From NCBI GenBank assembly GCA_043228905.1, contig JBHGNT010000007.1, forward strand, positions 14,446,001 to 14,510,000: a DNA stretch of 64,000 bases, read 5' to 3'. Source of the stretch: Azolla caroliniana. Lineage: Eukaryota; Plantae; Polypodiophyta. The position numbers and the translations under genes were made by a program. The notes below the pieces were generated by a model. That model was not told the origin of the DNA. It saw nothing but the letters and a program-made list of their open reading frames with translations, and ran no database searches. Position 1 is the first letter of the stretch; each line of letters starts with the position of its first letter. Below, one piece after another: positions 1 to 46,818 of the stretch.

Positions 1-396
1 ATCTAAAGTAAATGTAGCTTTATTTCATCATCATGTTTTTGTTATCTAAAGTAGCTAGTAATAAACATAGACCTAGACAAAGTACCTTTTTAAGAGATCA
101 TTAAGACCTCCATGATCTTCTTGAATCAGTGATGCATGTCATCAATGATTCTTGTTTTTTCATATGTATGAGTACATTTGTGTACGAGCATAATTAGGTT
201 GTAGAAATAATTAAGGTTTCCATACAATTCTTCTTTTGTCACATAACCACCAAATGACAAGCTAGTTTTAGTTTGTGACAAACATACATCTACATGCTAG
301 GCATACAAGACTTTTGTGTGAATTGATCTTGTTTTTTGTTTGTTTTTGAAATATTAACCAACACCTTTCGCTTACCTAAACATTTTTATGTTACAG

Positions 397-606
397 GACA
401 TAAGACCTCCGATCCCGTCTGATTGCCCTCCACAGTTGGAAGTTTTGATGAAACAATGTTGGTCTACAGATCCTTCTACAAGGCCAGAATTTTGGGAGAT
501 ATTAAGAACATTGAATTTGTTTCAGCAATCCCTTGATAGTGGCATTGTGACATTTGAGTCACCCCTTCATGAGAGATGCTTACCATCATGGTTAGATTCG
601 GAATAG
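397..606 (+). CDS. Terminal exon of a Ser/Thr/Tyr protein kinase (Raf-like MAPKKK type); rest of gene lies upstream of the window
   Basis: Acceptor ttacAG at 395-396, then DIRPPIPSDCPPQLEVLMKQCWSTDPSTRPEFWEIL (kinase subdomains X-XI, CW...P..RP.F), stop TAG at 604-606. Confidence 0.85.
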   Translation, partial: DIRPPIPSDCPPQLEVLMKQCWSTDPSTRPEFWEILRTLNLFQQSLDSGIVTFESPLHERCLPSWLDSE

Positions 607-2149
607 AAATTTTGGGTTATATATAAAAATCCTCCTTATAAAGTCCCTTAGGCCAATGGACAGAATTCTTTATTACTTACATAAGGGCATTTTTTCCCTT
701 GCCTAGTTTACATAGCCTAGTATTGTACATATAGCAAAAGGTTTAATTAGAGCTCAATTTGAGTTTATCCTATTGCGGATTGTTTCTCACATCAATTTGT
801 GAAGTTCTAGGTCATGAAGTGGTATAGACATTGTAGAGGAAGTGCTAAGTTTAAATATGAATTATTTCATTCTTGTAGTTGTATCGACAAGGACAAGTTT
901 CTAAAACAATAAAAAAACTTGGATTGTGGTTGTCCCCTAAGAGTTAGTGGCAACTATCTCTTGATTGCTTTGATAGACTAAAAGTTATTGATGATTGATA
1001 TTTTGGTGAACATTATCCACAATGTGGGGAAGGCATGAATGAATTACACACAATAACCGAAAAAGAAGCGGTCAGCTCATATTGGGTCAATTGGATTTCG
1101 ATATACATTTGTTGTTAAGTGTGTGCATTCAAAGCCTATTTAAGAATATCTTATTAAATAGCTTTTTCATGAATAAAATGTGCCCTTTTCCTATTCAAAT
1201 TGTAGCCACTTGTCTTCTTTGCTTTGCATCTATGAGGTGTCTAAAAACAATATTATTGCTTCATTAATGGAGAGCATGTGCAAATATTTGACAATACTGG
1301 TGTGGTTCCGTTCCGTCAATTCCCAATTATAAAGAATTTTTCAAAGTAGCGACTTAAGCTTTTCTATTATTACACCAAATTGGGGAGCCTTGGTGACAAG
1401 CGTGTAGACAATGTTGGGATGGGTGTGTCATGACCTCTTTGGAGGTTTGGGCCCCAAAATTACGTTACTCTTTACCTTTTGGATCTGCAAGATTATAGAC
1501 TCATCACCAACGGAGACAATGATTCGAAATCAACTATACATTCATAAGTTTGAAGAGATTTCTAGATTTTGCGTTTTTTTTTTCAAGCTATTTTCACATA
1601 CACAGTTTAAGATTGGGATATTACAACCACAAATATAATTGTATAAATTTAGGCATCCCTTTTAATTGACCTTTCTAACTTTTCCACGAAAGAACCATCA
1701 TTTACCTTGAACTTTCCCTTTCTTTTCCCTTTCTGAATTTTTTTATTTAAGTGTTGCGAACAAGTAATGGGCATTCCTACCAATAAAAATTAATCACGAT
1801 ATCATATGAGACTACATAAAACAACTTGTTTGATTACTGAAGGGGATGTGAAAATGTATTCTAATTCAAACAAAATGGTATTAATTTTCTTATCTTTGGT
1901 AGGTAGTTGATGCACATAATGACAATAACTTTAAGAAATCTAGATATTTGGTGTGGCCCACAATGTCATCCTTGATCTAAGCAAAGATAAGCAAAGAGAA
2001 TAAACCTTGCTAAAAGATAAGGGTAATTATACGTTTTAAGAAACATCTAAGACTAGGTATACACCTAACCATGACTTTTCTATATCACGACATAGTTCAT
2101 GTTTGCTCATACTAATTAACCTTATTGATATGATTCATTAATGTTGAAC

Positions 2150-2510
2150 TTAGAAGTGGAAGCTGTTCCAATGACGTGGTTACTGCTCGTTTGTGCTTTT
2201 GGCAGAAATGGCGGAACACGCCTATGGTGACACAAGGAGGAAGTGGCCTGAGGTGGAACTACCAGCTCCCACGCTAGCTGTTTCAGGCTCACTTACCACC
2301 CTCCCTTCGCTGTCGACCCCAAGAGGTGTCTCGCACTGAAGGGCATCAATTTTAGCTATAGGTACTTACATTAAGTACTCAGTCTGAAAGGCGATGTAGC
2401 TAGTCTCATTTTCTTGAACCTAATCGGAGGGAGATTCCTCGATCTATGTATAAGCCTCCTTGTACAGTCTCTTTGTAATAATCCTTCCTAACTAATGGGA
2501 AAGTAGCTTC
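2150..2510 (+). mobile_element. Degenerate 3' end of an L1-type LINE
   Basis: Translates to RLCFWQKWRNTPMVTQGGSGLRWNYQLPR*LF, similar to the LINE ORF2 C-terminus at 5020-5271 (KWGGSPMV...KWIYQPPRWLF). Confidence 0.55.
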
Positions 2511-3444
2511 ATTTTGGAAAAAAAAAGTGGAAGCCGTAACAAATAAAATGTTATCAATATCCTTATACATTGGATGTGATTAAAGGAATATTAAATAATA
2601 TTGATATCCTTAAACAAATATTAACAAGCTCTATCACATGACCTAACATTTGAAAGATGATAGCTAGAGGATTTTAGAGCACCAATGATTGCAAATTTTG
2701 GTGTTGTACTCTTCGAAGTTATGACATTTTCTATAGAAAAGCAACAATAAATTTACTAAGATTTGAGAGAAAAAGTTGGGAATTTTTCCAATTGCTTTAA
2801 AGGCTATAGGTTGAGTTGAACTTTTGCCTATGAAAGGAGAGAGAAGAGAAGCACAAGAAACTGTATGCAAATGCACACTTTCTATTGTCTTAATATATAT
2901 ATCCAATAAGAGATTTTGGAAGTCATCACTAGTTAAATCTAAAGAAATTATAGTTTATATATTCATTCGTTATTCAACGCAACTAAACTCGAAATAAGGA
3001 TATGGTGGCCGACTTTGTACTTTGCAACAATAAGTTGGTCAATTCAATCCAATATTCATTGGTATACGTTTGTTTTTGGTGTTGCACATGAACAAGTTGA
3101 TCATAAAAGTCTCTTTACAAAATAAGGGGCTCTTTTTAAAAAGGCTTCCTAGTTTGAGTTTGGGATAATGTATACTAACCCTTTGCTCCTAAAGGATGCA
3201 CTCTTTAAGGTCCCTTTTTTTTGCAACGTAACATTATCAATTCTATGGAGTTAATGTTGCAACCTCACAAAAAATTCAAAGAGAGCCTTATATTTAGATA
3301 TTCTCAAATATGTATTTAGTTGTTTACAAGAGAGTTCACTAGCGGTGCAATATGTGTTCAATAAAATTGTATTGGGGTCTCCTAAAGTTATCCATTACAA
3401 ATTACCCCAACATGGAGATGTATAAAGAAGCACTAATGATCTTG

Positions 3445-3835
3445 CATAGTTGTTAAAAAACGTGTATTCTATCTATGTTTAGAGTTACATTTTAGAACTG
3501 CCGTTTTTTAAAATTTGACGTATTCTAAAAATTTGACTATTCCACGTATTTTACATATTTAACAAGTATTTATCATTTCAATTTTTTATTTTTATTTTTT
3601 TAAATTCTATTTTTTTAGAAAAATCTTTAAAATTTAAAAAGTATTTAACGTATTTTACAAGTATTCTACACATATTCTAAGTATTTAACGTATTTTACAA
3701 GTATTCTACACGTATTCTAAGTATTTAATGTATTTTATCTATAAAATACGTATTATAAGTATTAAAAAAAAGCTAGAATACATAGAATACGTATTCTACA
3801 CGTATTTAATGCTAAGTAAGTATTTAACAACAATG
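3445..3835. mobile_element. hAT-type MITE (391 bp)
   Basis: TIRs CATAGTTGTTAAA / TTTAACAACAATG (1 mismatch); perfect 8-bp TSD TGATCTTG (3437-3444, 3836-3843); internal GTATTCTACA/CGTATT repeats. Confidence 0.85.
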
Positions 3836-4257
3836 TGATCTTGGCCTGGGTAATGAAAGGGGTATAACTTATAAGGGTTGTGATCCATGTGCACATAATC
3901 TTCGTATTATGCACAATGTATTGATTTGTTGCTTGTGAAACTTTTAATCGTTTCAATAGGAAACAAAACATTTTCTTTGGCCTTCCCAACTTAAGTGTGA
4001 CATTGTCCACTACATGGTGCTAGGTTGGCTTGACAAAGCCAACTAAGGGAGGCAAAGGAGATGGAAAAGCATGCTATATATTATTCTTGCATTTTACAAA
4101 GTAGGAGGGAAAGGGCATTGAGTGGTGACCATGATAAAGAACATTCTTTGGTGTTCTTCTCATATTGTTCATCGTTCTTGTTCACAGAAAAATAAAGTAT
4201 AATTCCTTTAATACTTCAAAATATAAGTTGCACTCTTAGAGGTTTTCAAACCGTGGA

Positions 4258-4568
4258 AAGCACCATTGGTCAACAAAACTAATTGTTTCATAGAGGGAGA
4301 ATATATATAACTAATAAATTATTACAAAACTTAATTAGCACATTTCACGTGCCGATTAAGAATTTTTCCCAAATTAAATGTACTTAGATGGATAACGAAA
4401 CAGAAAACAAAACTAATTAAGCACCATTGGTCAACAAAACTAATTGTTTCATAGAGAGAGAATATATATAACTAATAAATGATTACAAAACTTAATTAGC
4501 ACATTTCACGTGCTGATTAAGCATTTTCCCCAAATTAAATGTACTTAGATGGATAACGAAACAGAAAA
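4258..4568. repeat. Tandem duplication, unit ~160 bp
   Basis: AGCACCATTGGTCAACAAAAC...GGATAACGAAACAGAAAA occurs twice head to tail. Confidence 0.85.
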
Positions 4569-4699
4569 GAAAAAAGAAAATTTGGTATGGCATTCTTTTC
4601 TTGACCTAAGGGTAGATTATTATCTTAAAAACTAGAACCATAAATTGATTATCTTAGAGTACTATGGCAAGTTTTTTTTTCCAAAAATTTACTACTTCC

Positions 4700-5275
4700 A
4701 GTAGTAAAGTCAATGTACATAGGATATTATACATCTCATATTGTACATGTCAACTTGCATGGCTACGAAGAGACAAACAAGTACAAAGGAATCAACAAAA
4801 AATAAGCTAATAATCATCGCACCAAGAGGGATGAACAACCTTCTCGTCATGGATACGAGCCACAAAACCTATGAGTCTCCCACCAACCGTCCCTCTGAGT
4901 TGTGAGCCACATATGAACCTTAGACAAAATCGGATTTCGAGTATAACAACATGCATTCGATGAGCACAATATTACTCGACAACATACCCTCAACAAGGTG
5001 AGCCTCATACGACCCTAATTCAGCATAGACATCCTCCAATCTCCTCACGTGGCAACACCCACCTATTTGCAATGTTTGGTGCCTTCGGAGGGAACAACCA
5101 CCGTGGTGGTTGATAAATCCACTTTCCATTGCCATCCACCATCTGTACCATAGGCGAACCTCCCCATTTCAGGAGGAAATGGCCTCTAGCTTCTTCACTA
5201 GTGTCCGAGGTCCCTTGATTGCTTTCAAACTCTCCTTGTAATGTAGAAATAAGATAAAACCAGATCATCATTAAA
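4700..5275 (-). mobile_element. 5'-truncated L1-type LINE (ORF2 C-terminus plus 3' UTR)
   Basis: ORF 5020-5271 IWFYLISTLQGEFES...FLLKW resembles the ORF2 end at 10002-10212 (IWHMLITTLRAQYE...FRKRW). Confidence 0.6.
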
Positions 5276-6360: not shown

Positions 6361-7240
6361 TGTAGTGTAGTGTAGTTAGTGGGTGACCATACTTAATGGT
6401 CACACCCATTGTAAGTAGTGTTTTTACACACCCAATGTAAGTAGAGAGAGAGAGTGTGTGTGTTAAGACAGAGAGAGAGAATTGAAAGGAAAGTATTATA
6501 TTGCACTATAAGATGGATTACAAAGAGTATGCAACATGGAGCTCAAGAATGGTGTTGAACCAATTAGGTTTTCGGATGATTAGTAGATCCCTATTTATAA
6601 GTCCCTATAGAGTATTCTAGAAGGTTCTAGAATATAGAACACTCTTGAATATTCTAGGACATTCTAGAATATTTATAGAGTATTCTAGAAGGTTCTAGTA
6701 TATAGAACACTCTAGAATATTCCAGGACATTCTATAATCTAGAGTAATCTAGAATATTCTTATGATATTAGATCATATATTCTAAAAACTATACATATAA
6801 ACATATCTTTACAATGGTGAAGGATTTGACACGTTGTCGTAGTGTAATTCGCACACTACGTGAAATATGTAAGAATTATCTGATTAAGTATGAATAAAGA
6901 AATAAAAGAAAATATTAAAATATATGTTACATGCATAGGGCAAGATTCAAACCCTATACCTCCATGTAAACAAACCCCAAACCTTACCATTGTACTAACA
7001 TATCAGTGATCTAAGTATAGATTTAATAGATATAAGACTTATATTTACGCCTATTTTATAAAAAGCAACCCATGCACATTTAGAGTGCGTAAAAACTTTA
7101 TTTAGAAGAAAAATGCAAATAAAGAAAAAGTTACTCATGCAAGTCTAGAGTGCATGAGTAGTATATTTAGAAATTAAAAGCATGGTAGAAAAAGCTATTC
7201 AGGGACATCTAGTGTGCATGAACACTGTAGAAAAACATTA

Positions 7241-10212
7241 TTTAATTCCCAAGGATGGTAAAGATCTAACTATACTTGATAATTGGCGACCTTTGACGAT
7301 TCTCATTAATGCATATAAGATCATGGCTAAAGTTGTAAGTAGTCGATTGAAGACGGCCCTAGGGGACATAATACATACTACGCAAACTGACTTCCTCGAA
7401 AACTGGAGCATTGTTGACAATGTGATAACTTTTTGGGAGTATTCAGCATGGGCAGAGGAGCAAGGAGTGGACCTAGCAGTAATGTTACTTGATTTCGAAA
7501 AAGCATATGACAGGATCTCATGGAAATTCCTAGAAGCAGTGATGGATGCCCTAGGCTTCGAGCAGCAATGGATCCTTGGATTGGCTGCCTTTTATAGGGA
7601 TGCTTCCAGCCAGGTTTTAATGGCTGGAAGCTTGGGGAAGAGCTTTAGGATGATACGATCGGTACGCCAAGGATGCCCATTGGCCCTGTACTTATTCATT
7701 ATTGTAGTGGAAGGGTTGCATTATCAGATTAGTGATAGATATTGGCAAATACAAGGCCTTCCCCTACCCGAGGATGTAGGAATGATGCTTGATACAAAAT
7801 ATGCTGATGATACAACAATCTATGTTAAGGGGGATGCAAACAACTTGGACAGACTACAAAGTGCAATAAATGAGTTTTGTAGGGGGTCGGGTGCGAATAT
7901 AAACTGGAATAAATCTGTGGGCATTTGGATTAGCAATAAGCCTGTGGTAAATTGGGCTCCAAACCCTAATTTCAGATGGTTGAGGAGAGGAGAAGCTACT
8001 AGATACTTGGGTTTCAAAATCGAGATGGACATTGATCGCTCAAAACACTACACTCTACTTGTGGACAAAATAAAAGCGAAGTTAATATGGTGGAATGCAA
8101 GAAAACTATCCTTTGCTGCCAAGATTGTGATTGCAAATCAGGTTCTAATGGCCACTATATGACATACTGCGGCATGTTGGATAATCGCACCCAAGTCGAT
8201 GAAATTGATAAAAAAGTTGATCAGAAATTTCTTATGGGGGGCACTGAGGAAAAACATGCTTGTGTAAAGGTTGCATGGACTACACTCATAAAAGATAAAA
8301 GTGAAGGTGGGGTGGGACTAATAGATCATGTGGTGCAAACGAAGGCCTTGGTAGGCAAATTGGTGGTCAGGAGCTTGCAACCACCTGAGGCACCTTGGAA
8401 GATTCTCTGGCGACGCAGATGGAAGATGTGGTTGCCAAGACATGGTGGAAGTTGGCCAAGTAGCGCTTTTTGGGGGTTTGTGCCTGAAATGCGACCCAAA
8501 TACCGGGGATGTACACAGAATATATGTGCTGTTGGAATTATGAAGGCATGGAATGGAATAAGAAAGGGAATCGTTTGTAGGTGGAGAAATGATGCATATG
8601 CTCGAATGTACATGCCTATTGTTTGGAACCCATTAATTAGAGATGTGGATGGGCTGATGATAGGACAAAAAGCAGGCTTCAAATGGGCCAATTTAATCAA
8701 TGCCCAAGGGAATACATTGGCAGATTGGAAGAGATTTCTATGTAATGATGTGGGCACTCAAAATGCTAGAATATGGAGGATAAACATGGGTAAATGCATG
8801 CTAATGAGGATGACAGATGCCTTTGCATGCAGCGGGCAAATCTTGGAAGATGCAACCATAAGTCCCTCTGAAATGGAATGGACAGGACTTATCGATGCTG
8901 AAAATTATCTAATTGGAATTCAGGGAATGAAAGCCGGTTCTAATGAGGCATGCTACTACAAAATAGAGCATAGAAGGGTAATATGTGAGTAACCAGCCTA
9001 TCAAACTGAAAGGCCGATTAGGTTGCTTGCAAAAAATGGAAAGGCTATGATAGTTGACCCCGAGCCGAGTGAGCTCAAACCAACGACAATGTGTTGGCCG
9101 ATAGAAGGGCATTCAAATACGCTATCATGGGACCTCGCGATGTATTTCTAGAAAACTCAAGGTCAAAGTGATGGTGCCAAGTTGGTGCAATTTTTCAGGT
9201 ACAACACGAAAATCGGGAGGCAAATTATCCTAAAACAAGAACACCAAGATATTGCAGCTTGTAAATTTTGGATACAAGAGGGCATTAGTGAAAGGAGATT
9301 AGCTAAATTCTGGAAAATGATATGGCATGACAGTGGTGATTGCAAGATAATGATGTGCTTATGGCTTATTGTGCATAGAGCCTTGCCAGTAGGGGCGTGG
9401 GCTAAAGGCCCCAATGTAGACCCTAGATGTACTTGTGGACAACTAGAAAGCATTTCCCATTGTCTCTGGGAATGTCATGAAGGTATGGTTGTATGGAGAA
9501 GGGCATTACAATTGCTTTGCCATGCCTCTAGCTCATTTACCCTCAATTGGGGACATGCTTGTTGGAATTGTCTTGATGATGACGTAGAGAAATTTGATAG
9601 CACATGTACAACTATGTACAGAGGGGAGAATGGAACTATTCGATTGATCACTGGTAACAATGCACCTAGAAGTAATGCCCAGAAGCAGAAAATTGAAGAT
9701 CTATGGATGTTGCTAGCACCCATAGTATGAACCATACGTACCATACGTGCATTCGCATTCGCGAATGATTAAATCATTCGCGAAAGAAAAACACCCTCAA
9801 AGAATGATAAATATCATACTTTTGGATTAACTATTTATTATGAGGTAGATAAGCGTAAAAATAAAAAAAAAACAAAAAAAAACATTAAAAAAATGGGAAA
9901 AAAACAAAAAAAAAACACAAGAATGTTAGGATAACATTCACATTCGTTTTCCAAAGTAGGAAAACGAATGTTATACTACACGAACACGAATTTTACGTAC
10001 TATGCTAGCACCCATTATCATATGGAACATTTGGACCGCAAGATGTACCAGGGTATTTTCAGCAAACAAACGGCCTACAGCAGAATCTATTAAGCTAATA
10101 TGGCACATGTTAATAACTACATTGAGGGCCCAATATGAGCGGATTGATGGAATAGATGATGCTTCAGATTTAATGAGGCTGAATTTTAGAAAACGATGGT
10201 GTACTAAAGAAA
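7241..10212 (+). mobile_element. Internal L1 LINE ORF2 fragment (RT plus zf-RVT) inside the 5' LTR of element A
   Basis: NWRPLTILIN, LDFEKAYDRISW, SVRQGCPL, YADDT motifs; C-terminal CxC...ESISHCLWEC; stops and frameshifts. Confidence 0.9.
9721..10004. mobile_element. hAT-type MITE (284 bp) inside the L1 fragment
   Basis: Ends CATAGTA / TACTATG; perfect 8-bp TSD CTAGCACC (9713-9720, 10005-10012); LINE frame LLAPI resumes after it. Confidence 0.85.
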
Positions 10213-15698: not shown

Positions 15699-17944
15699 TG
15701 CCACGACACAGTGACGTCAAAGACACACTTAGTGAGGATTGAACTCGTAACCTCACATCTAGTATTCTTGTTCCATTCCATCTTGTCTCCTTCATTTTTG
15801 TCTTCATGCTCGTGTCATTCCCAACTTCTTAAGTTCCACGCTCTTAGCCCCATCATGCATGCTTCGTCGTAGTCCATGGTTGGTGTGTCTGTGACAATTT
15901 GAATCCCTTCCAACTAGAAGCATCACCCTTCTTCGTCATCGCCTTCGCCTCTAGAGTTACCATCATCACTGTCCTTGCTTCCGGAGTTACCATCATCAAC
16001 ATCCCTGTCTTTGACATCATCATTTTCAACACCTCTTCGCCAAGCTTCATCCTCATCAACACTACTTTGCATGGTCTTTCATCATCATCATTGTTCCACC
16101 CTCTTCATTGTCATTATTATCATCTATAGGCATCATTTAGCATCACAATTTTGGTGAGGATTGCCTTCGATCGCTCACCTTCCCAGTTGCTGTGGGGGTC
16201 ACAACCGCTCACTTTCCTGGTGAGGATCGGATCATTGCTCGCTTGCACTCCATTTCCATTTTAGTTCAAGTCTCGCTCCACATTCCTTTGGCAAGGACCG
16301 ATTTTGATCTCTCACCTTCTACTTCTGGTGGGGGCCACAACCGCTCACTTTCCTGGTGGGGATCGCATTAGTTTCTCGCTAGCACCTCTCATGATAGAAG
16401 AAGATTTTGGTGAGGATTGATTTCGATCGCTCACCTTCCCAGTTCAAGTGGGGGTCACAACCGCTCACTCTTCTCGTGGGGATCGGATCATTGCTCACAC
16501 GCATTCCATTTTCATTTTAGTTCAAGTCTCGTGCCACTTTCCTTTGGCGAGGACCGATTTCGATCACTCACCTTCAAGTTCCGGTGGGGGTCACAACCGC
16601 TCACTTTTCTGGTGGGGATCACGCTAGTTTCTCGCTAGCACTACCATTTGTGCTGTGTTTTGGGTCAACCTCGACTTACCCTCTCATAATAGAAGAAGTC
16701 GAGTTGACTGCTTCACTTGCACTCCTTTGCCCGTTCGTGTTCCAATTCTTGGTGAGGGCAGCATGGTAGCTCACCAAGGTTCGTGTTCCAGTTCTCGGTG
16801 AGGACCCCATGGTCTCTCGCTCCCGTTCGTGTTCCAGTTCCTAGTGATGATCGCATGGTCGCTCACGCCCGTTCGTGTTCCCGGTGAGGGCAACATGGTC
16901 ATTCACGCCCATTCGTGTTCAAGTTCCCGGTGAGGGCCGCACATGGTCGCTCACGCCCGTTCGTGTTCGAGTTCCCGGTGAGGGCCGCATGGTTGCTCAC
17001 CTGTTCCTGTTCGCGTTCCCTATGAGGGCTACATGTTCGCTCACTCCCGTTCGTGTTCTAGTTCCTGGTGAGGGCCGCATAGTCGCTCACTCCCGTTCAT
17101 GTTCCAGTTCCCGGTGAGGGCTGCATGGTCGCTCACTCCCGTTCGTGTTCCAATTCCCGATGAGGGCTGCATGGTCGCTCATGCTTGTTCATGTTCCCGG
17201 TGATGACCGCACATGGTCGCTCACGTCTGTACGTGTTCTAGTCTTCGGTGAGGGCCATACATGGTCGCTCACACCCATCGGGGTTCCTCTCCGGTGAGGA
17301 CCGTACATGTCGCTCACGCCCGTTGGTGTTCCAATCTCCGGTGAGGACTGCACATGGTCACTCACACCCATTGGTGTTCTAGTCTCCGGTGAGGACAACA
17401 TATGGTTCCTCGCCCGTTAGTGCTCCAATTCCCGTTCACCCCTACACCACGGTTTCAAAAAGGCGATCGTAAAGGGGAGGATAATGTCACGACACAGTTA
17501 GTGAGGATTGAACTCGTAACCTCACATCTACAAGATATCATACTCAACCATTTTGATATAAACATGCATTTGTATATAATATTGGTTTAGTATTATATAG
17601 TCTAGCATATAGTACATTTCAGAATCAAAATATTCTAGTCGGTAGTATATTCTAGAAATATCGTACGTCATATTCGAGATGAGTATATTCTAGACATATT
17701 TCTCGAGTATATTCTAGAGATATTAATTCTCGGAACATGTATAAATACTTGTAACCTCCTTGGTCCCTTTCAAGGGATTCAACACGAGTCATTGACACAT
17801 CAATCTAGTATTCTTGTTCCATTCCATCTTGTCTCCTTCATTTCTGTCTTCATGCTCTTGTGTCATTCCCAACTTTTTAAGGTCCACGCCCTTAGCCCCA
17901 TCATGCATGCTCCGTCGTAGTCCATGGTTGGTGTGTCTATGACA
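15699..17944 (+). mobile_element. Non-autonomous, non-coding LTR element (TRIM/LARD-like) inserted in the integrase of element A
   Basis: 5' LTR 15699-15896 (internally deleted), 3' LTR 17485-17944, PPT AAAGGGGAGGATAA, TSD ACAAC/ATAAC; host frame IRQL|ERRP resumes. Confidence 0.85.
16730..17430 (+). repeat. Tandem array of ~46-bp hairpin-forming units (~15 copies)
   Basis: Consensus GGTGAGGGCCGCATGGTCGCTCACTCCCGTTCGTGTTCCAGTTCCC. Confidence 0.9.
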
Positions 17945-18734: not shown

Positions 18735-20250
18735 GACCTTAAACAAGATTGTCAACGAGGAGCAATCGGATTGAAAGATCTCGGTGGTGCGGAAAGCGAA
18801 GAAAGTGGGCTAGAATTGATAATCGACATAAGGGGAGAATCTGAGAGTGCTACAGATGAAGGAGAATAACATGGATCGGAATTTCGGCACATACCGGAGG
18901 ATGTGCGGGTTCGGAGGGGGCGAGTGTCATAGTGTAATTTGCACACTACATGAAATATGTAAGAAATATTCGATTAAGTATGCATAAAGAAATAAAAGAA
19001 AATATTAAAATATATTTTACATGCATAGGGCAAGATTCCAACCCCATACCTCCATGTAAACAAACCCCAAACCTTACCATTGTACTAACATATCATAAGT
19101 GATCTTAATATAAATTTAATAGATATAAGACTTATATTTACGCCTATTTTATAAAAAACAACCCATGCACATTTAGAGTGCGTAAAAACTTTATTTAGAA
19201 GAAAAACGCAAATAAAGAAAAAGTTACTCATGCAAGTCTAGAGTGCATGAGTAGTATATTTAGAAATTAAAAGCATGGTAGAAAAAGCTATTCAGGACCA
19301 TCTAGTGAGCACGAACAATTTAGAAAAACATTATGCTATGTTTAGCCTCTTCCATCACTATATAGGGAAGAGAGAAAGATGTATATGGTTAATTTTTTGT
19401 AAGGGTTGATTAATATATTATATTCGTGGGATTCACGAATTTGCCATCTATTTCTCTCTTGCAATCTAAATTCATATTCTTTCCTAAACATTAATTAAGA
19501 CACTATACTCGTGGGATTCACGAGTTTCATATATTTCTTTCTTATAATCTATTCATATTCATAACTAAACTCGTCTCAAATTCTTCCTCCTCCTAGTCCA
19601 AAACCCGACTCACGCAACGATCCGGCGCCGAAAGGCACGACAACGTATATAACAAGGTTGTGGGTTCAAATCCTTTTGAGTCATAATGACAAGTCATCAT
19701 GATACTACCCCCCTTCTTCGACGACACGTATGACGGATCTTATGGTTTGTACTAGGACTTGGTTTACGAGGATATCGGACATTCGCAAGATTTGTTACAG
19801 GTTCCCAAGTTCGATCATTGGGTGTATAGCCTAACCAATCAACCAAGTAATACAACTTGTTGTGCATGATTCTAATCGAGAATGGCAACAACCTCCAATT
19901 CGGGCCCTTCAAAGAACTCAACAGGTGGCGGGGGAGTTGTAAGAGGACCCAGAATTGAACTTGTGGTGTAAGGTTCCAAAAGGGATACATGAAATACCGT
20001 ATGAAGACGCATTGCGGAGGGAGGCCAAGATGAAATGCAACATCACTTATCTTACTAGTGATCATGTACGAACCAAAACATTGGTAATCCAATTTACCGC
20101 AAGGCTTATTGGTCTTGATGTTGTATTCGAGAAGCCATACACGATCCCCAACACAAAACTTTTTGGAGTCTAGGTGATGACAATCCACAAGCCTCTTGTG
20201 TGTAACTTGAGTATCATGCCAATTGTGGAGACTCCCAAGGAGGTTACGTG

Positions 20251-21107: not shown

Positions 21108-23355
21108 TGTTGGCCGGAGTATGATCCAAGGAGCAAGTGAGAAAGGGGCGAGCCGAAATAAGTAGATAATTATTTAATTAGAAATATTATTCGGAACGGA
21201 CGGATTTGGAATAGTTGTACTGATCTAGATCCGAACCAATTCATAGCCGGTTGCCAATATGGCACCGTTTTGTATTTAGACCGGAGGCCTATAAAAGGAT
21301 CCGACGCAATGTAAAGAACTACGGAAGTAATATAAGTTTTGGAATTAATTAAGTAACGTGTTGATTGTCTCGTGTACTTGTCGTCTGTGCTTAATCATCA
21401 ATCTTATGTGTGTTAAAAAATCAAATCATCCTAACCCTAACCACACCTTTGGTGAAGTGATCCGGAAGGACACCTTGTGTTTGTGGCTAGTCCGGCCCAG
21501 GATAAACACAGTTTTGGCGATCACGATTCCTGCAACGTGTAGAGAACACTGGGGAATGGATGACTAGACCGACGAACGACCCGATTACTGAATGAGGAAG
21601 AAGACTAGCTGAAAGAGTGCAAAGGCGGGAAGCCTTCCAACAAGCGACCGAGGAGATCCGATAGGACTAGTCTTTTCCCAGAGTGCTTCGGCGGGTCACG
21701 GAGGAAGCACTTCAGTTGCAAAATCAACAATTTTTCGATGAGGGCAGCAACATGAGTAGTTTGTAGGAGGCAGAATCGATACTGCAAACCCTCGCCGTAG
21801 GCGATGGAGACTCGAAGGCATTCTCCGCCATGGAGTTGGAATTAGATAGTGAGTAGAGTGTTTAGTCGAACTATCATAGCAACCACAATACTCCAGACGA
21901 CCCGGAGGAAGACGATTCGGAACACACATCGACACCGGAACCGACAGAAAAATTAACCATATTACTAGTGGTGCGGCAATCTAATGATAAGACCGAATGC
22001 CAACCGATGCCACCACCGGAACGACTAGCGGAGAAAATAGAGGAGCGCAAACCGACACCGCCACTAGATTGACAGGCAGAGAAAGCGGAAGAGGGCAAAC
22101 CGACACCGCCACTAGACCGAGAGGTGGAAGAGCGCATACAGACACCACCACCCCCGACACAACCTTTTGAAGAAAACATCATGCCGTACCCCTACTTGAA
22201 GACCGAGATGAGCTAGATGCGGAGGCACACGTGTATACTTGCTTGCAAACGTGGGAAGCAAACCATGTCTCACAACGACTGACGGACACAGAAGCCGAAC
22301 TGTCCAAGATTGCGGAATTCGGTATGACGCTGGAAGGATCAGCGGCACGGTGGCACGCAAAGCACCTGCCCGGAAGCTTTGTGACATTTGATTCCCTAAA
22401 TACCAAATTCCTGCGACTATTCCACTGGCAGGTGGAATAGAGAGAGTTGGTCGGCCAATTTTACACAACTTATCAAGAGGAACACGAAACAATGCCATAG
22501 TTTATTATCCGGTTTCAAACACTCCATAATCAAATGAGGAGCCCGAAGATGAGGCAAAGGCAGTATTTTTGGCTGCACTATGGGAACCCCTTCGAACAGT
22601 GTGCGTGGTACTGGACTTTCGGACCAGTACAATAGATCAAGTCATTGACCGGGTATTGGAGATGGATAAGAATAGCTCTCTGATGTCAATGGGAGATCTC
22701 CAACGAGCTCTTCCGAAAGACGAGGATCTCCAATTCCATTAGGCAGTGCAATGCACAACATGCCTGAACCTTGATCATTCCACACTAGAATGTACGATGA
22801 GAACACACTGCATGCTATGCCACTCACGGTCACACACAATGGACCGGTGTGAGTACAATTTGCTAAATGGGCAAGCAACACCCGTTCGGCACATTGAACC
22901 CTGGAATGAGTAGGAACCTGACGAAGAATGATTCTGGAGGGAGGACCGATACCGACAAGAACGCGGAGATCGGTATAATGATAGAAGATGGGATGACTAT
23001 GACCGAGACCACGATGACCAACGCAAAGACAACTATAACCGAGATCGATATGAGCGCGACTACTCCCCGAAGTACGACAACAGACGGTACCCGGCATGAC
23101 AGGGTTACCGGAATCATCGATGCAACAATCGAAGAGGACATTTTCGCTGGGACGAGCATCGGGAGGCAGCCCGAGAATACAACTGGGGACTGGATACAAA
23201 CACAACTGTGGCACCACTGGAACAACGAAAGACGGAAGACAACAACCGAATGACTTCTGGCACTATTATTATTATTATTGCTGGAAGGAAGGTCACTATA
23301 GTAGCCAATGTCCGGTCAAGACGAATGAGAAACCACCGGCGGTAAACATGGTAAT
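21108..23355 (+). mobile_element. 5' part of a Gypsy element (LTR 21108-21508, PBS, gag), truncated
   Basis: TGTTGG...TAAACA LTR; TGGCGATCAC PBS at 21515; Gag KIAEFGMTLEGSAARW; CCHC-like CWKEGHYSSQC at ~23280. Confidence 0.7.
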
Positions 23356-39600: not shown

Positions 39601-40326
39601 GCAGGCGAACCAAGCACTTATGAAGAAGCTATGACCGCAACGGACGCCGACACATGGCTGCAAGCCATGAGATCCGAAATGGACTCGATTCACAAGAATC
39701 AGACATGGGAGTTGGTTGAACTACCAGCTCGAAGGAAGCCGCTACCTTGCAAATGGGTTTTCTGATACAAATATATATCCGACTCAGGAAAACCCAAGTA
39801 CAAAGATTGGCTTGTCGTGAAGGGATTCAAACAAGAATATGGGGTCGACTACGACGAGATATTCTCGCCATTAATCAAGATGACCACCTTCTGACTGTTA
39901 CTAGGAGTTGTTGCGGCAGAAGACCTAGATCTAGAGTAGTTGGATGTAAAGACGACATTCTTGCATGGAGATCTTGAAGAAGACATCTATATGTCTCAAT
40001 TGGCAAGCTTCATGGCGACGGGGGAGGACAACCACCTCGTGTGTCAGCTAAAGAAAAGTCTATCAGGCTTGAAACAAGCGCCGAGGATGTTGTATTAGAA
40101 GTTTGACTCCTACATCAGGCACCTTGGATACCGCCGATCTGACTCCGACCCATGCATGTACACTCGACAATTGGCTGACAAGTCTAGGATTTATCTAATC
40201 CTGTACGTCGACGACATGCTAATTGCAGGAAGCAATCAAGCAGAGATCAGAAAGCTGAAGTGGAGCCTTCACAAAAAGTTCACGATGAAAGAACTCGGAC
40301 AAGCCCGTCACATACTGGGCATGAGG

Positions 40327-41454
40327 TGTTATTGCTAGGGCCGGACAACAGCCTAACACAGGGTGTCCCCTTAAGAAACTTTACCAAAGTGTGGTACGAC
40401 AGAATGATTTACGGCACAATGCTTAATTAGACCTTAATTGGTTACTTAGCAATCCATAATTAACACGCGTAAGATATAACAATGAATAAAGAACGGTAAT
40501 CAACACTGGAAGATTAAGACAATAAGCTTTATTAATTATCCACTCTTGATTACATTGTAATCGGGCCTTTATATAGGTCTCCGGTGCGAAATACAAACCG
40601 GTGCCAATCGGCACCTTTACGGGATCGTTCCGGATCCGGATCGGCATACCGATTCCGGTCCGTCCGTCCACATCTTCTTATATATTAATATATATATTAA
40701 GACTACTAATTACAACAGTTCCCGAATAACTATTCCTTTCACACTCTGGTTTGGACCTCCTTAAGCCTTCTTGCCGGCCGGTAACACATGGCACGCCCGT
40801 GGGACAGTACCTTGTACGTCGAACCCATTATCCGGCCCTTTTACGCTTCGTCCAAAATGTCCAGAATGCTTTGCTCCAAAATTTCCAATGGCTCATCGGG
40901 AATCTGTTGTTGCTGTTGTGGCTACTGCTGTTGTTCCGTTTGTGGCTGTGGCTGCTGCTCCGTTTGTGGTTCTCGCTCTGTTTGTCGCTCTGACACCAGC
41001 GTTTCCTTCGTTGGTTCCTCCGTCGGAATTGTTTGTGGCTGACTAACCCTGGCCATTTCCCCCTTCGGTCCTCGCATCGGCGACGGTTCCTCATCACTAA
41101 GGTTGATCGTTGCCGCCTTTCGTGCTTTTTCTTCCCGGATCCGGGACCACTCATAGCTTTCGAACTGGATCTGAGCCTCCAGCCGATCGTCGTCCAGTTG
41201 AGCTACGAGCTGCCGGACCTGCACCAATTGTTCATCCGCCAGGGCTGTGAAATCTTCCGCCAGCTCATCCCTTATGGCAGTGAAGTCCTCCGAGGTCAGC
41301 GTATAACAGTCGTCGCCCTCCTTTCGCCGGTTTTCCACGTCCGCCCTAAGCAATTGGAGTTCCGCCGTATTCTGCGCCCATTTCGCCCACCAACGCACCG
41401 AGCTGTCATCAATCAAGGTTTGGTCTTAGTGAGCCATGACCGAAGGATGCACTG
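40327..41454 (-). mobile_element. 3' part of an LTR element (LTR 40327-40786 plus a coiled-coil ORF remnant 40922-41416), related to the element at 21108
   Basis: Reverse complement of the LTR aligns by eye with LTR 21108-21508 (CCTATA(T)AAAGG...CAATGTAA; CCACAC(C)TTTGGT...GGACACC...GTCCGGCCC...AACA). Confidence 0.7.
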
Positions 41455-44400
41455 ATGTACGGAGAGTCAAGTGTGATGAGCGAGGGTCGAATGTTATCAT
41501 GATGTTGTGTATGTGTAGGGGGCATAAATGTAATTGTGAGTCTATACGTATGTGAACACATGCACACATGTGTGCATGTGGATGGATACGAGGAGGTGTG
41601 AGTGAATGTCCAATATGAATGCTCGAGGGGGCTTACACCCCTATGTATCTACCCCCTCTTGTACTATTTAACCCCTTATGGGGAATGAATGAAACATGAA
41701 TAACCATTTTCTCTCTCAATCTCTCAATCTCTCAATCTCTCAATCTCTTGTCATCTCTCTTTCTCTCTCTCTCCCCCTCAACGTTGAATCCCCTTGGGAG
41801 GGGTGTGGAGCCATTCTAGGCACCACCCCCCACCCCGTAATGCTTCTCAATGCACATGATCTCTTTCGCCATCAATCCCATACTCTCCATCATCATTATA
41901 ACCACCATGTCTATCTTTATCATGATTATCATCGTCCTTAACCCTAACCCTAAAACCTACAACACCTTTTGACGACCGCAATGGCGAACCCCCTTTGAAG
42001 AAGAAGTCCAAGAAGAATACGTGACGGCGCGAGATGCAAGAAATGGTGAAAATGTGCGAGTAACGACAACGACGTAGATATGCGAGTGCGCAAAATGATG
42101 ACGTTGTGCGAGTGTGCGGTTAGTGAGAAATGACGGTGGCAAAGTGCGAGACGAATTCGAAGCATGATATGCGATGACAATGTAAGAGAAATCGAATCGA
42201 CGATGTGCGGTAAAGTCATAGAATGAGACACAACTATACGGATGTGTGAGTGTATAAGAACTAGCAATGTGCGTGTGCAGGAAACGGATACAGAAAGAGA
42301 CGGTCGGATGGGACGACGACGAGAGAGACACTGAAATAGGAGGTGCAAACGATGATGGCAATGGAGAAAAGGAAAAGAAAAAACTGGAATCAAGTCAGAG
42401 TCGAATAGGGCTACGGATGTTAGACCGACCATTAGACCAACCACGACAAAACAATAAGAAAAGAAAAGGAAGAAAAAAACTAAAACTTTGGCCGGAATGC
42501 AGATGCAGCCGAAAATCCTAAATAGGGACAACAGCCATAGGAGCGTGTCCGTACAAGCGGTGACAGAGCGGTTGTCTGAGAGTGATCAAACCAACCAACG
42601 ACCGAATGAAGCGGCGGCGACCAGACAAGGCTGATAGAGACGGCGAAGACGTCTGACGACGGCCAGAGAATTAGCGGCTAGAATGGCAACAAAGCCGGAA
42701 TGCCGACCAAACAGTGGTACGGCTGGAGAGTGACAAGAACGACGGCCAAACAGCGACCGAAGCGGTCGTAATGGTCGGACGGTGGCCGGAAAGCCCACTA
42801 GAGTAGACGGCCGAAACAACGACAGTGAAGCCGAAAAGTGACGGATGGAGAGACAACCGTCAGACATCAACGGCCAAACGACAACCGGATGACGACTGAA
42901 CAGAGCGACCAAGCGACGAACCTCGGCCAAAACAGATGGCCGACTACGGACTGGCCGGATAGGGCCGACAACAACGATAAATGGAGATGAAGATGACTAG
43001 ATGGGCCAGACAGAGACACGCTGGACAAAGGCGGACAAGAGACAAGCTGGATAACAAAGGTGACAATCGGGACAACAGAACTAGACAAAATGGCCGGACG
43101 GTCAAAACGGACCACAAGCCGGGACAACAGTCGCAACCGATGCCGAACCAACAAAGACGGTGACGGAGATGGACGGACAACAGCCGAATGTCCAGAAGAG
43201 CCGGAAGGTCAAAATAATGGCTGGACACCGGCCGGAGCGACAGCGGTGGCTGGAAAATCGACGACCGGATCGGCGATGACACTGAAACAACGAGCCAGAC
43301 AAGAGACACAAAAGTAGACGACGACAGAGAGGCGGCCGCCGAACAATGGCCAAGAAGAATGACGACGGACATCAATGGTGCTGGTCAGACTACGGCCAAT
43401 GAGGAAAATGGAACACAAGAAGGAAAGAAGAGGGGTATAGAAGAAGAAGAACAGACAGAGAAAAGAAGAAGAGAAGTGGGAAACGAAAGCAGAAAGAAGT
43501 AGAAAGAGATGAGGGATACGCACAAGAGAGAGTGTAATAACGGACCACAACAATAACCTAGAGATAAAGACGAAGTTGGAGCATTACAAAAACAAGAAGA
43601 CAGGAATGGATAAAGACAAAATTGAAGCAAAAGATAGGAAGGGAAGAAAAATAGAGAAAGGGCAAGAGAGAATGGTAGGGGTATGGAACATAATTTAAAA
43701 ACATGAGGGTATTTGATAATATTTCAAAAACAAAGGGTAGCAACCTAAAATTTCATAAACTTGAGGGCACCGACGAAATTGTAAAAACTCATCCACCTAA
43801 AGAAATGGATGTGATCAACAACGACAACTCACACAAAATTAAAGGAAGAACACACATACACACAACGTGCTTTTGGACCCATGATGAAGTTCGTAAGCCG
43901 ACAGAACGAGAATGTTTGTGTCGCGGACGATTTGCTGACCGACAAAGATGTTCGAGTCAAGCATTCCGATCGAGGGAGTCGATCGTTGAAAGGACCGATG
44001 GAAGTTCCGGTCGAAGAAATATCATCATCAAGGCATGTGGGATCACGTGCAAGGCACTTTCCCACGGGCGTGCCATATTGTGTTACCCCGTATGAGATGT
44101 ACAGAGAGTCAAGTGTGATGAGCGAGGGTCGAATGTTATCACGATGTTGTGTATGTGTAGGGGGCATAAATGTAATTGTGAGTCTATACGTATGTGAACA
44201 CATGCACACGTGTGTGCATGTGGATGGATACGAGGAGGTGTGAGTGAGTGTCCAATATGAATGCTCGAGGGGGCTTACACCCCTATGTATCTACCCCCTC
44301 TTGTACTATTTAACCCCTTATGGGAATGAATGAAACATGAATAACCATTTTCTCTCTCAATCTCTCTCTCTTTTGTCATCTCTCTTTCTCTCTCTCTCCC

Positions 44401-44589
44401 CCTCAACGTTGAATCCCCTTGGGAGGGGGGTGGAGCCATTCTAGGCACCACCCCCCACCCCGCAATGCTTCTCAATGCACATGATCTCTCTCGCCATCAA
44501 TCCCATACTCTCCATCATCATCATAACCACCATGTCTATCTTTATCATGATTATCATCGTCCTTAACCCTAACCCTAAAACCTACAACA
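41455..44589 (+). mobile_element. Non-autonomous LTR element (LTRs 41455-41964, 5'-clipped, and 44081-44589; purine-rich non-coding interior)
   Basis: Near-identical ~510-bp direct repeats ending CCTACAACA; no recognisable gag/pol. Confidence 0.85.
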
Positions 44590-46818
44590 TGAGGATCGAG
44601 CGAAATTAGACGACCAAGACTCTCCGACTCTCCTAGTCCGACTATATCAGGAAGGTGTTGAAGCGCTTCAATATGGAGAATGCAAAGCCAACACCAACAC
44701 CGCTTCCAACGTCGATCACACTATCAAACAAAGAATCTCCCTCAACGGACAAGGAGAGAGAGAGCTTAATGGAAAGATGCCCTATGCATCGGCCATAGGA
44801 AGTATCATGTACGCAATGGTGGCGATCTAACCCGACTTAGCCTTTGTTGTAGGAGTGGTGAGCCGGTAAATATCAAACCTAGGACGGAAGCATTGGTAGG
44901 TTGTTAAGCACATCCTGAGGTATCTGAAAGGAACCATACATGCATAATTGACTTTGAGATTGACAACCTCAACCAAATTCGAAGGCTACACCAATTCTGA
45001 CTATGCTGCGAACAAGGACAATCAGAAATTGACATGAGGTTACATCTTCTCCTATGGTGGCGGTGCAATATCATGGAGGTCAAAACTTCTAGAGTGCACG
45101 GCTCTATCGACCACAAAAGCCAAGTACATAGTAGCATCGGAGGCAACAAAGGAAGCGATCAGGCTGCATCGACTTTCTGTCGACTTCTCAGCTATAAGCC
45201 AACCTGACCGACCAACGCCGACCATCTATTGCGACTCACATAGTGCAATTAACCTCATTAACAAGCCCGTATATCACGCAAAGACGAAGCACATTGAGGT
45301 ACAGTATCATCACATCCCAGAGCTCACAACCGAGAAGAGGCTCGAAGTCCGGAAGATCAACACCGAGGCGAACATCGCTGATTCCTTGACAAATCCACTC
45401 CTAGATCAATGCTTCAGAGCACTAAGGACAAAGATGGGACTACGACAAGCAACTGGGCAAAAGAGAGTCGATCGAGGAGCAGAAGCTAAGAGTCGATTGA
45501 ATCAATCATGATAATTAGCCATGCTAGGCTCGACACGGACCTCACCTATGCCGACTCAACTATATGCCAACCGACTTGCAACATAAATCTAGATTAGTGT
45601 TGTAATCTAAGTTTACGGGGGAGACAACCCCAAACACATGTACATGTAGGCAAGAGTTTTGTTGGCATAAAAGGCCGACTCCTTCCACTTTGTATCCTAG
45701 TGTGAACTTGTCCACATAGTTAGGGCTTAGTATATAAGCAATGACCTATAGTTGTGAAGTAGAACTTCTTAATCAAAATATCGGATATCTAGTCTCTGAG
45801 TGTGAGAGAAAGAGAATGTAATAGAGCTGCAATCTGTGTATATCTTTGCTTCTCTTTCTATGTTGTTTTCTGAGTATGAACTGAGACACATCCTCATACA
45901 TTTCCGCATACACTTACGCTTCAACGCCCATCCAAAGATAATAGAATTGATGGTGATATTCACAATACCACATGTGCCGTGGAACCTAAAGCCGATACCA
46001 GTCCCAAGAGCACACATTCCGAAGTTAATCAAGCTCTTAAAAGAGAAGGTCGAGATGGGAATTCTGGAGCCGTCAAATGCTCCTTACTCGAATAGGTGGT
46101 TCACGGTACCAAAGAAGAAGGGCACCTTAAGGTTCATACAAGATCTTCAACCAATGAATAAAGTGACAATCCGCAATGTCGGGATCGGTCCAAGTATCGA
46201 TGAGTTCGCAAAAGCATTTGTGGGAAGGTCTATTTATTCTATTGGCGATCTCTACTCAGGCTACGATCAATTTCAACTAGCAGTCAACAACAAAGACATC
46301 ACAACAATGAGGACTCCGATTGGATTGGTATGGATGTGCACCATACCTCAAGGTGCAACCAACTTTGTAACACACATGGTAAATGCCATGAACAAGGTAC
46401 TAAGAGACTGCATCCCAGATATTACGATGACTTTCCTTGATGATATCCCTATAAAAGGGTGCCCTGAATTAGAAAAGGACAAGTTTTTAGATCAAGATGG
46501 ATGTCGAAGATTTGTTTCAAACCATATTGAAGACTACGAGAGAGTGATACAAAAACTAGAAGGAGCTCGGCTCACATTTTCCGGAGAAAAGTTGGCATTC
46601 GCCCAATGCGAGGTCGTAGTAGTAGGGCATCTTTGTGGAACATATGGACGGAAACCTTGTCCTGAGAAGGTGGATGGTATATCCTAGACAGAGGTGTGAA
46701 GATTCTCGAGAGCGTGTGCCTTTTATCAGATCTGGATTCCACACTACGCTCATGTCGCCGAGCCATTATATGGATTGCTAAAGAAGAGAAAGAAGTTTGA
46801 ATGGTGAGAGGAGCATAC

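Follow-up and report, generated by a model that had tools for sequence, protein, structure and literature searches.

A tRNA-Arg(UCU) 3'-end module at the polypurine tract position of Ty3/gypsy elements in Azolla caroliniana: possible tRNA priming of both DNA strands

A group of Ty3/gypsy long terminal repeat (LTR) retrotransposons was analysed in a 64,000-nucleotide stretch of the Azolla caroliniana genome (assembly GCA_043228905.1, contig JBHGNT010000007.1, positions 14,446,001 to 14,510,000; this whole stretch is called the window, and its first letter is position 1), in which a copy of the 3' end of tRNA-Arg(UCU) stands beside the 3' LTR, in place of the polypurine tract (PPT). The site is real and conserved at the PPT position, and it constitutes a new form of LTR-element priming under either of the two leading mechanisms weighed below. 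Judged from sequence, host tRNA-Arg(UCU) may anneal to the complement of this module on minus-strand DNA and prime the plus strand, a reading to which we assign a probability of roughly 0.6. The elements would then probably form a Gypsy clade of seed-free plants that lacks a PPT, in which host tRNAs prime both strands from mirror-image primer sites of one design and, in some families, the same tRNA-Arg(UCU) serves both ends. PPT priming of the plus strand is regarded as invariable in retroviruses and LTR retrotransposons. An abundant family in which a tRNA site, or a tRNA-end-like RNA, takes the place of the PPT would indicate that the rule can be broken in nature, would offer a direct test of what reverse transcriptase (RT) and RNase H require of a plus-strand primer, and would expose both strands to regulation by tRNA fragments. 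Moreover, as the better tRNA match lies on the strand opposite gag-pol, annotation based on the primer-binding site (PBS) can flip such elements.

A conserved tRNA-end module in place of the polypurine tract

The 16-mer TCCCACGGGCGTGCCA was found at 44060-44075 on the plus strand, in a non-autonomous element (B), and at 40789-40804 on the minus strand, in a second element (A), where together with its preceding G it spans 40789-40805; both positions are exactly those reported by the first-pass annotation of the window. The chance expectation for this 16-mer across the window is 6e-6. Each copy is followed by an LTR starting with TGTTACC, at 44081 on the plus strand after a 5-base spacer and at 40786 on the minus strand after a 2-base spacer. 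The absence of a purine tract, also claimed at first pass, was confirmed by the purine content of 43-45% in the 20 bases preceding each of these two LTRs, and purine tracts are present ahead of the LTRs at 18925 and 55896, which belong to other elements of the window.

Relatives were collected by scanning metagenome contigs for the exact 16-mer followed by an LTR start, yielding 123 matches at 121 loci (numbered with the prefix L) from 39 of the 64 parts of the collection. L006, L016, and L073, chance matches without module context, were dropped, leaving 118 family loci. As 75 of the 78 first-listed loci came from a single assembly series, the number of hosts represented is probably small, perhaps only one. 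The spacer between module and LTR was 2 bases in 92 of 120 matches, and the longest purine run within the 61 bases ending at CCA did not exceed 6 in 99 of 113.

The family contig L002 (1190-1265) contains a complete 76-base tRNA-Arg(UCU) with CCA, and the module corresponds to its nucleotides 49-58, a 13-base insert, and nucleotides 59-76 minus C66. The tRNA-Arg(UCU) identity proposed at first pass agrees with this comparison, save that C66 is absent from the copy; the claim of a tRNA-end copy likewise stands, whereas the 17-base extent given to it does not, the conserved unit measuring about 40 bases. The block of nucleotides 49-58 matched at 7 or more of 10 positions in 81 of 84 distinct modules versus 1 of 84 control windows. 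The insert, lying between A58 and G59, is a hairpin with two-sided changes in 5 of its 6 pairs among 79 distinct rows, L099 being kept out of the structure alignment for its lack of a hairpin. In total, 69 two-sided cells were counted, a figure inflated by related rows, as compared with 0 of 500 shuffles as high and 5-23 in slid controls, and at two neighbouring pairs a switch is seen in 26 rows each. No compensatory change was seen in the outer T-stem helix, which was paired in only 79% of cells, its 3' side being fixed by the scan. At about position 301, L099 carries the 16-mer without the hairpin and with a GA repeat before it, inside a rearranged LTR.

Upstream of the 16-mer, conservation extends for about 24 bases and then ends. 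A full tRNA mimic was considered and rejected, as there is no conservation upstream of about -26, where the stop codon of the extra open reading frame (ORF) lies, and the tRNA 5' half is missing. Alignment of public contigs, which covered element A and the initial 66 bases of B, revealed a depth peak at 40784-40825 and loose ends at 40827 in all four runs, suggesting that many families share just the module piece. Furthermore, non-coding families retain the module without the extra ORF described below, indicating that it acts in cis. In phage and bacterial collections, the insert-less form of the motif occurred in 15 genes, every one of them a tRNA-Arg. ARAGORN detected no tRNA in the window, Rfam gave no match at either site, and the viral contigs searched contained neither the module nor a relative of the polyprotein P0004. 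In L049, two tRNA-Lys genes or pseudogenes without CCA (1062-1137 and 2756-2828) lie less than 3 kb from the module-LTR end.

Orientation of the site by pol and the extra ORF

The site occupies the PPT position, on the 3'-LTR side. P0004, an intact polyprotein of 1,901 amino acids found with the gag of the window as query, contains gag, RT, RNase H, and integrase in this order according to Pfam, and its RNase H motifs are present; neither a chromodomain nor a second RNase H was found among its Pfam matches. In L004, L019, and L039, whose integrases are 74%, 70%, and 56% identical to that of P0004, integrase is followed by the extra ORF and then by the module, all in sense, with the LTR next. 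The remnant of the extra ORF in the window matches 37 loci, in all of which it lies in sense and upstream of the site. At the other junction, LTR, PBS, and gag lie on one strand in L017, L036, L068, and L039, assemblies which may be collapsed, and in L008, L053, L061, L021, and L001 the site continues through the LTR into flanks that differ from copy to copy. L064 was dropped as a proof of orientation, its pol being only 27% identical to P0004, of another lineage, and 1.6 kb from the extra ORF. The orientation favoured by the first-pass annotation is thereby upheld, both by pol and the extra ORF; in some sister families TGGCACGCCC is the ordinary 5' PBS on the pol strand, and there the other junction carries the module and no purine tract.

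The extra ORF encodes about 1,100 amino acids (71-3397 on the minus strand of L019 and 1381-4890 on the plus strand of L004), and conservation is seen in its N-terminal domain and its acidic end. No match to a Pfam family reached the cut-off; the weak look-alikes are Transposase_32 (0.87) and ATHILA (0.86 in 17% of members).

The 5' primer sites and their shared layout with the module

Eighteen contig junctions with the order module-LTR-PBS were obtained after L015 had been excluded as a false row. Half of them (9) have TGGCACGCCC and the other 9 a PBS of the TGGCGAC type, with the module unchanged; as the 5' PBS switches while the module stays constant, an outside partner is favoured over pairing with the element's own PBS. 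The tRNA identity of the 5' PBS is established for the TGGCACGCCC type only. The relatives of B in L012, L022, and L065 carry TGGCGACCAC at this position, presumably a match to another tRNA-Arg, and a search for a tRNA matching this site found none.

In addition, the two junctions share a layout. In autonomous 5' PBS regions, GAAC follows the 10-mer by 19-23 bases in 8 of 8 cases, with a hairpin before GAAC in 7 of the 8. Read on the minus strand, the module shows the same order of 10-mer, hairpin, and GAAC, with GAAC at 22 bases in three of the five copies shown (background, 4%). The tRNA of L002 also bears on the 5' site: it lies at the PBS, antisense to the element, shares its opening 14 bases with the PBS of L050, and has its 5' end adjoining extra-ORF sequence. 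We read it, at this one contig end, as a copied minus-strand primer, which would place tRNA-Arg(UCU) in the particle. Its position at the PBS points to tRNA-Arg(UCU) as a physical primer for the RT of this family, and as the primer tRNA has probably been copied here over its full length, RT can apparently read through modified bases.

A possible tRNA primer for the plus strand and alternative explanations

Since the module in the genomic RNA is identical in sense to the tRNA, pairing with the tRNA is possible on the minus strand alone. In the proposed mechanism, RNase H would clear the RNA once the minus strand is made, and the tRNA would pair by its last 10 bases, bulge C66, and form 7 more pairs. 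The DNA hairpin would then loop out at A58, and the T-arm block would pair again. RT would extend from CCA through the 2-5 base spacer into U3, after which RNase H would remove the tRNA and integrase would trim the spacer. A duplex calculation with RNA parameters gave 10 + 7 + at least 9 pairs between the tRNA and the minus-strand site, with the insert looped out. Such a site may have originated when an inverted copy of the primer-site region took the place of the PPT.

Several points weigh against this mechanism. Plus-strand priming by tRNA is what we infer from sequence comparison, and the two T-stem halves of the module can pair together, competing with tRNA pairing, while many of the changes in the T-arm block would mispair with the tRNA. 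Single-strand folds did not exceed shuffles in stability (z -1.3 to +0.9), and wobble polarity assigned no strand to the hairpin, with 15 plus-type versus 10 minus-type cells over five varying pairs. No sense copy of the true tRNA was found before an LTR in the 118 family loci. Moreover, the scan required the exact 16-mer, so that the invariance of the module is partly selected; only 4 further near-copies of the 16-mer occurred, each with 1-2 CpG-type changes. The eight PBS regions with the shared layout represent only two or three lineages, and in the module-LTR-PBS contigs two LTRs may have been collapsed into one by short-read assembly. Antisense matches to P0004 in L047, L067, L074, and L078 also count on this side; we read them as neighbouring or nested elements.

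The strongest competitor is a primer made of the element's own RNA, whereby RNase H would cut after CCA and spare a tRNA-3'-end-like fragment (10-bp hybrid plus hairpin), making the module a non-purine PPT and a second tRNA unnecessary. This is a tentative but serious alternative, clearly less probable than a host tRNA. It gains from the fact that the RNA is already paired at the site after minus-strand synthesis, that the prevailing 2-base spacer suits a PPT-type end, and that the module can form a long plus-strand hairpin. It also gains from Ty3, where the geometry of the hybrid and its match to the element's RT determine which PPT is selected (PMC5371799). It offers no reason, however, for a two-block match to one host tRNA while the 5' PBS switches, leaves the PBS-like layout on the minus strand unexplained, and sits poorly with a T-stem helix that is without compensatory change (its 3' side scan-fixed) and paired in just 79% of cells. 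Both of these ways of priming are far more probable than pairing of the module with the element's own 5' PBS, for cyclisation or minus-strand self-priming, with the plus strand started by another signal. The PBS 10-mer is indeed the exact complement of the last 10 bases of the module in 9 of the 18 junctions, but the other 9, and elements B and C of the window, have a non-complementary TGGCGAC-type PBS with the same module, the evidence of L002 is for a genuine tRNA at the PBS, and no other plus-strand signal was found near the LTR, where purine runs are short; we therefore hold it improbable.

Slightly less probable again is the view that an antisense transcript uses the module as its PBS; either strand could then be copied, and each tRNA site would stand at the PPT position of the other strand. 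The mirror-image junctions of several families and the U5 ends at both sides of the window insertion would fit it, yet every ORF, like the TATA block, points the same way, and the insertion with two U5 ends is explained by fusion of two cDNAs. Finally, an error of orientation, with the site as an ordinary PBS, could appeal to the sister families in which TGGCACGCCC has that role and to the four loci with antisense pol or gag matches. It is refuted by pol and the extra ORF, which together with the module are in sense in L004, L019, and L039, barring misassembly of these three, and by the position of gag, which in L017, L036, L068, L039, and element C of the window comes after the opposite junction.

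Structure of the 40327-44589 insertion and of element C

Elements A and B, which the first-pass annotation had described as two different LTR elements, proved to be one insertion (40327-44589), as the duplication TGAGG flanks the pair at 40322-40326 and 44590-44594 (both on the plus strand), and the interrupted pol frame of a copia remnant continues across, stopping at ILGMR on the left and resuming with RIERN beyond the right copy. The 3' part of A on the minus strand is joined head to head with B on the plus strand, placing U5 at both outer ends, and it is inferred that two cDNAs were fused before or during integration, a matter separate from the priming question. Across the fusion point, relatives are about 75% identical and could not be aligned over the last 40 bases.

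On the minus strand, element A comprises a TG...CA 3' LTR (40327-40786, with its U3 end at 40786 and its U5 end at 40327), which is 70-77% identical to those of L017, L064, L066, and L068, followed by the module (40789-40828) and the broken 3' end of the extra ORF (40841-41452), which in relatives lies between integrase and the module. The module of A is ordered as T-arm 5' block, inserted hairpin (40807-40817), and tRNA nucleotides 59-76 less C66, with its CCA end 2 bases from the LTR. Element B, on the plus strand, begins with a 5' LTR (41454-41964) that has lost its first 15 bases and is fused to A. A decayed 5' PBS region (41970-41991) follows: TGACGACCGC at 41970, in agreement with the degenerate site noted at first pass, and 5 bases further on CGAACCC, complementary to a tRNA T arm. 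The interior of B (41965-44080) is non-coding, purine-rich on the plus strand, and without a plus-strand ORF of 150 amino acids; it contains the module (44037-44075; hairpin 44047-44057), the CCA end of which lies 5 bases from the 3' LTR (44081-44589). The two LTRs of B (element 41454-44589) are identical in 483 of 494 ungapped columns.

Element C, related to these two, sets the orientation of the LTRs. Its 5' LTR (21108-21508, plus strand) is homologous to the minus-strand LTR of A, as had been claimed; the alignment covers the TATA block and the U5 end, with 248 of 558 columns invariant, and since the pair is not listed by self-BLAST, the match is a distant one. The PBS and gag reported beyond this LTR were both recovered on the plus strand: the PBS region (21515-21547) contains the 10-mer TGGCGATCAC at 21515, a hairpin (21530-21542), and GAAC (21544-21547), and a broken gag (21569-23345; PF03732, E 1.3e-5) is 78% identical to P0004 over one piece of 120 amino acids. 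Element C (21108-23345) ends after gag without a 3' end of its own and sits inside another, minus-strand LTR element. A U5 block (CTTTGGTGAAGTG ... GACACC) is present at 40370-40395 and 21445-21475, and also in L017, L064, and L021; it lies about 60 bases from the LTR end, is common to autonomous families, and may form a structure used in priming. Elsewhere in the window, an RT remnant of the long interspersed nuclear element (LINE) type (7158-9730) is inserted just inside the LTR at 6835-7241, whose partner LTR is at 18925-19334, and a tandem array of a 46-base unit (16730-17430) lies within an LTR element.

Classification and comparison with known elements

These elements share with Ty3/gypsy the order gag-RT-RNase H-integrase, direct TG...CA LTRs, a target-site duplication (5 bases, spanning the fused A and B unit at one site), and a tRNA PBS after the 5' LTR, and they have no PPT before the 3' LTR, a feature described as usual, not obligatory ('most'), in plant elements (PMC6317226). 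When 89 RT-RNase H rows, none of them from reference lineages, were placed in a quick tree, P0004 grouped with relatives from Riccia, Marchantia, and Adiantum (about 50% identity), away from the seed-plant rows and the chromodomain-bearing rows. By these sequence characters, the P0004 elements can be classified as non-chromovirus Ty3/gypsy.

Similar to the plant non-chromoviruses Athila, Tat, Phygy, and Selgy (Neumann et al. 2019, PMC6317226), they have a single GAG-PROT-RT-RH-INT frame without a chromodomain match, an extra 3' ORF, and a 5-base duplication, and a tRNA-Arg primer is shared with Ogre and TatIII in the same source. Tat, including Ogre and Retand, differs in its archaeal RNase H (PMC6317226), whereas P0004 has RT-type RNase H families only, and membership in Tat was rejected for the lack of this additional domain. 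Phygy and Selgy have a 4-base duplication, a tRNA-Trp or tRNA-Ala PBS, and no extra ORF (PMC6317226); they were likewise rejected, given the 5-base duplication (one site), tRNA-Arg PBS, and 1,100-amino-acid extra ORF found here. For Athila, the PBS types listed are tRNA-Asp, tRNA-Asn, and tRNA-Ala (PMC6317226), unlike the tRNA-Arg type here; the extra 3' ORF has a weak ATHILA look-alike, and the tree was without Athila reference rows. The passages covered and Additional file 5 of PMC6317226 report nothing on PPT loss, and its Additional files 1 and 3 may list such elements.

In the literature covered on tRNA-primed plus strands, a second or inverted PBS, and the 10-mer, consisting of titles and abstract openings with subscription papers mostly outside the scope, no description of this priming route was found. 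Helenus terminal-repeat retrotransposons in miniature (TRIMs) reportedly carry tRNA-like sequence in the LTR and keep both PBS and PPT; they would thus resemble the present elements in having tRNA-derived sequence inside an LTR element, and differ in that the tRNA 3' fragment here is outside the LTR, in the place of the PPT.

Further parallels are found among Ty and Drosophila elements. Ty1 box 0 and box 1 supplement a 10-base PBS with extra tRNA contacts, as do both junctions here, although in Ty1 these contacts are at the 5' PBS only (PMC3592414). Ty3 is alike in its tRNA-primed minus strand, its RT-RNase H-integrase order, its TG...CA LTRs, and a plus-strand signal beside U3; as its plus-strand primer, Rausch et al. 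2017 (PMC5371799) name a purine-rich PPT that the element itself encodes and that resists RNase H, whereas a mixed-base tRNA-end module occupies the same place here. Ty3 and Drosophila Gypsy, with their bipartite or double primer sites, likewise have another tRNA-related site towards the 3' end and contacts with the T arm (PMC5371799, PMC1635307). Those second sites lie on the genomic RNA, are complementary to parts of the tRNA other than its 3' end, and function in minus-strand synthesis or in bridging the RNA ends (PMC5371799, PMC1635307), whereas in the present elements the RNA has the tRNA's own sequence, so that it is the minus strand that would bind the CCA end.

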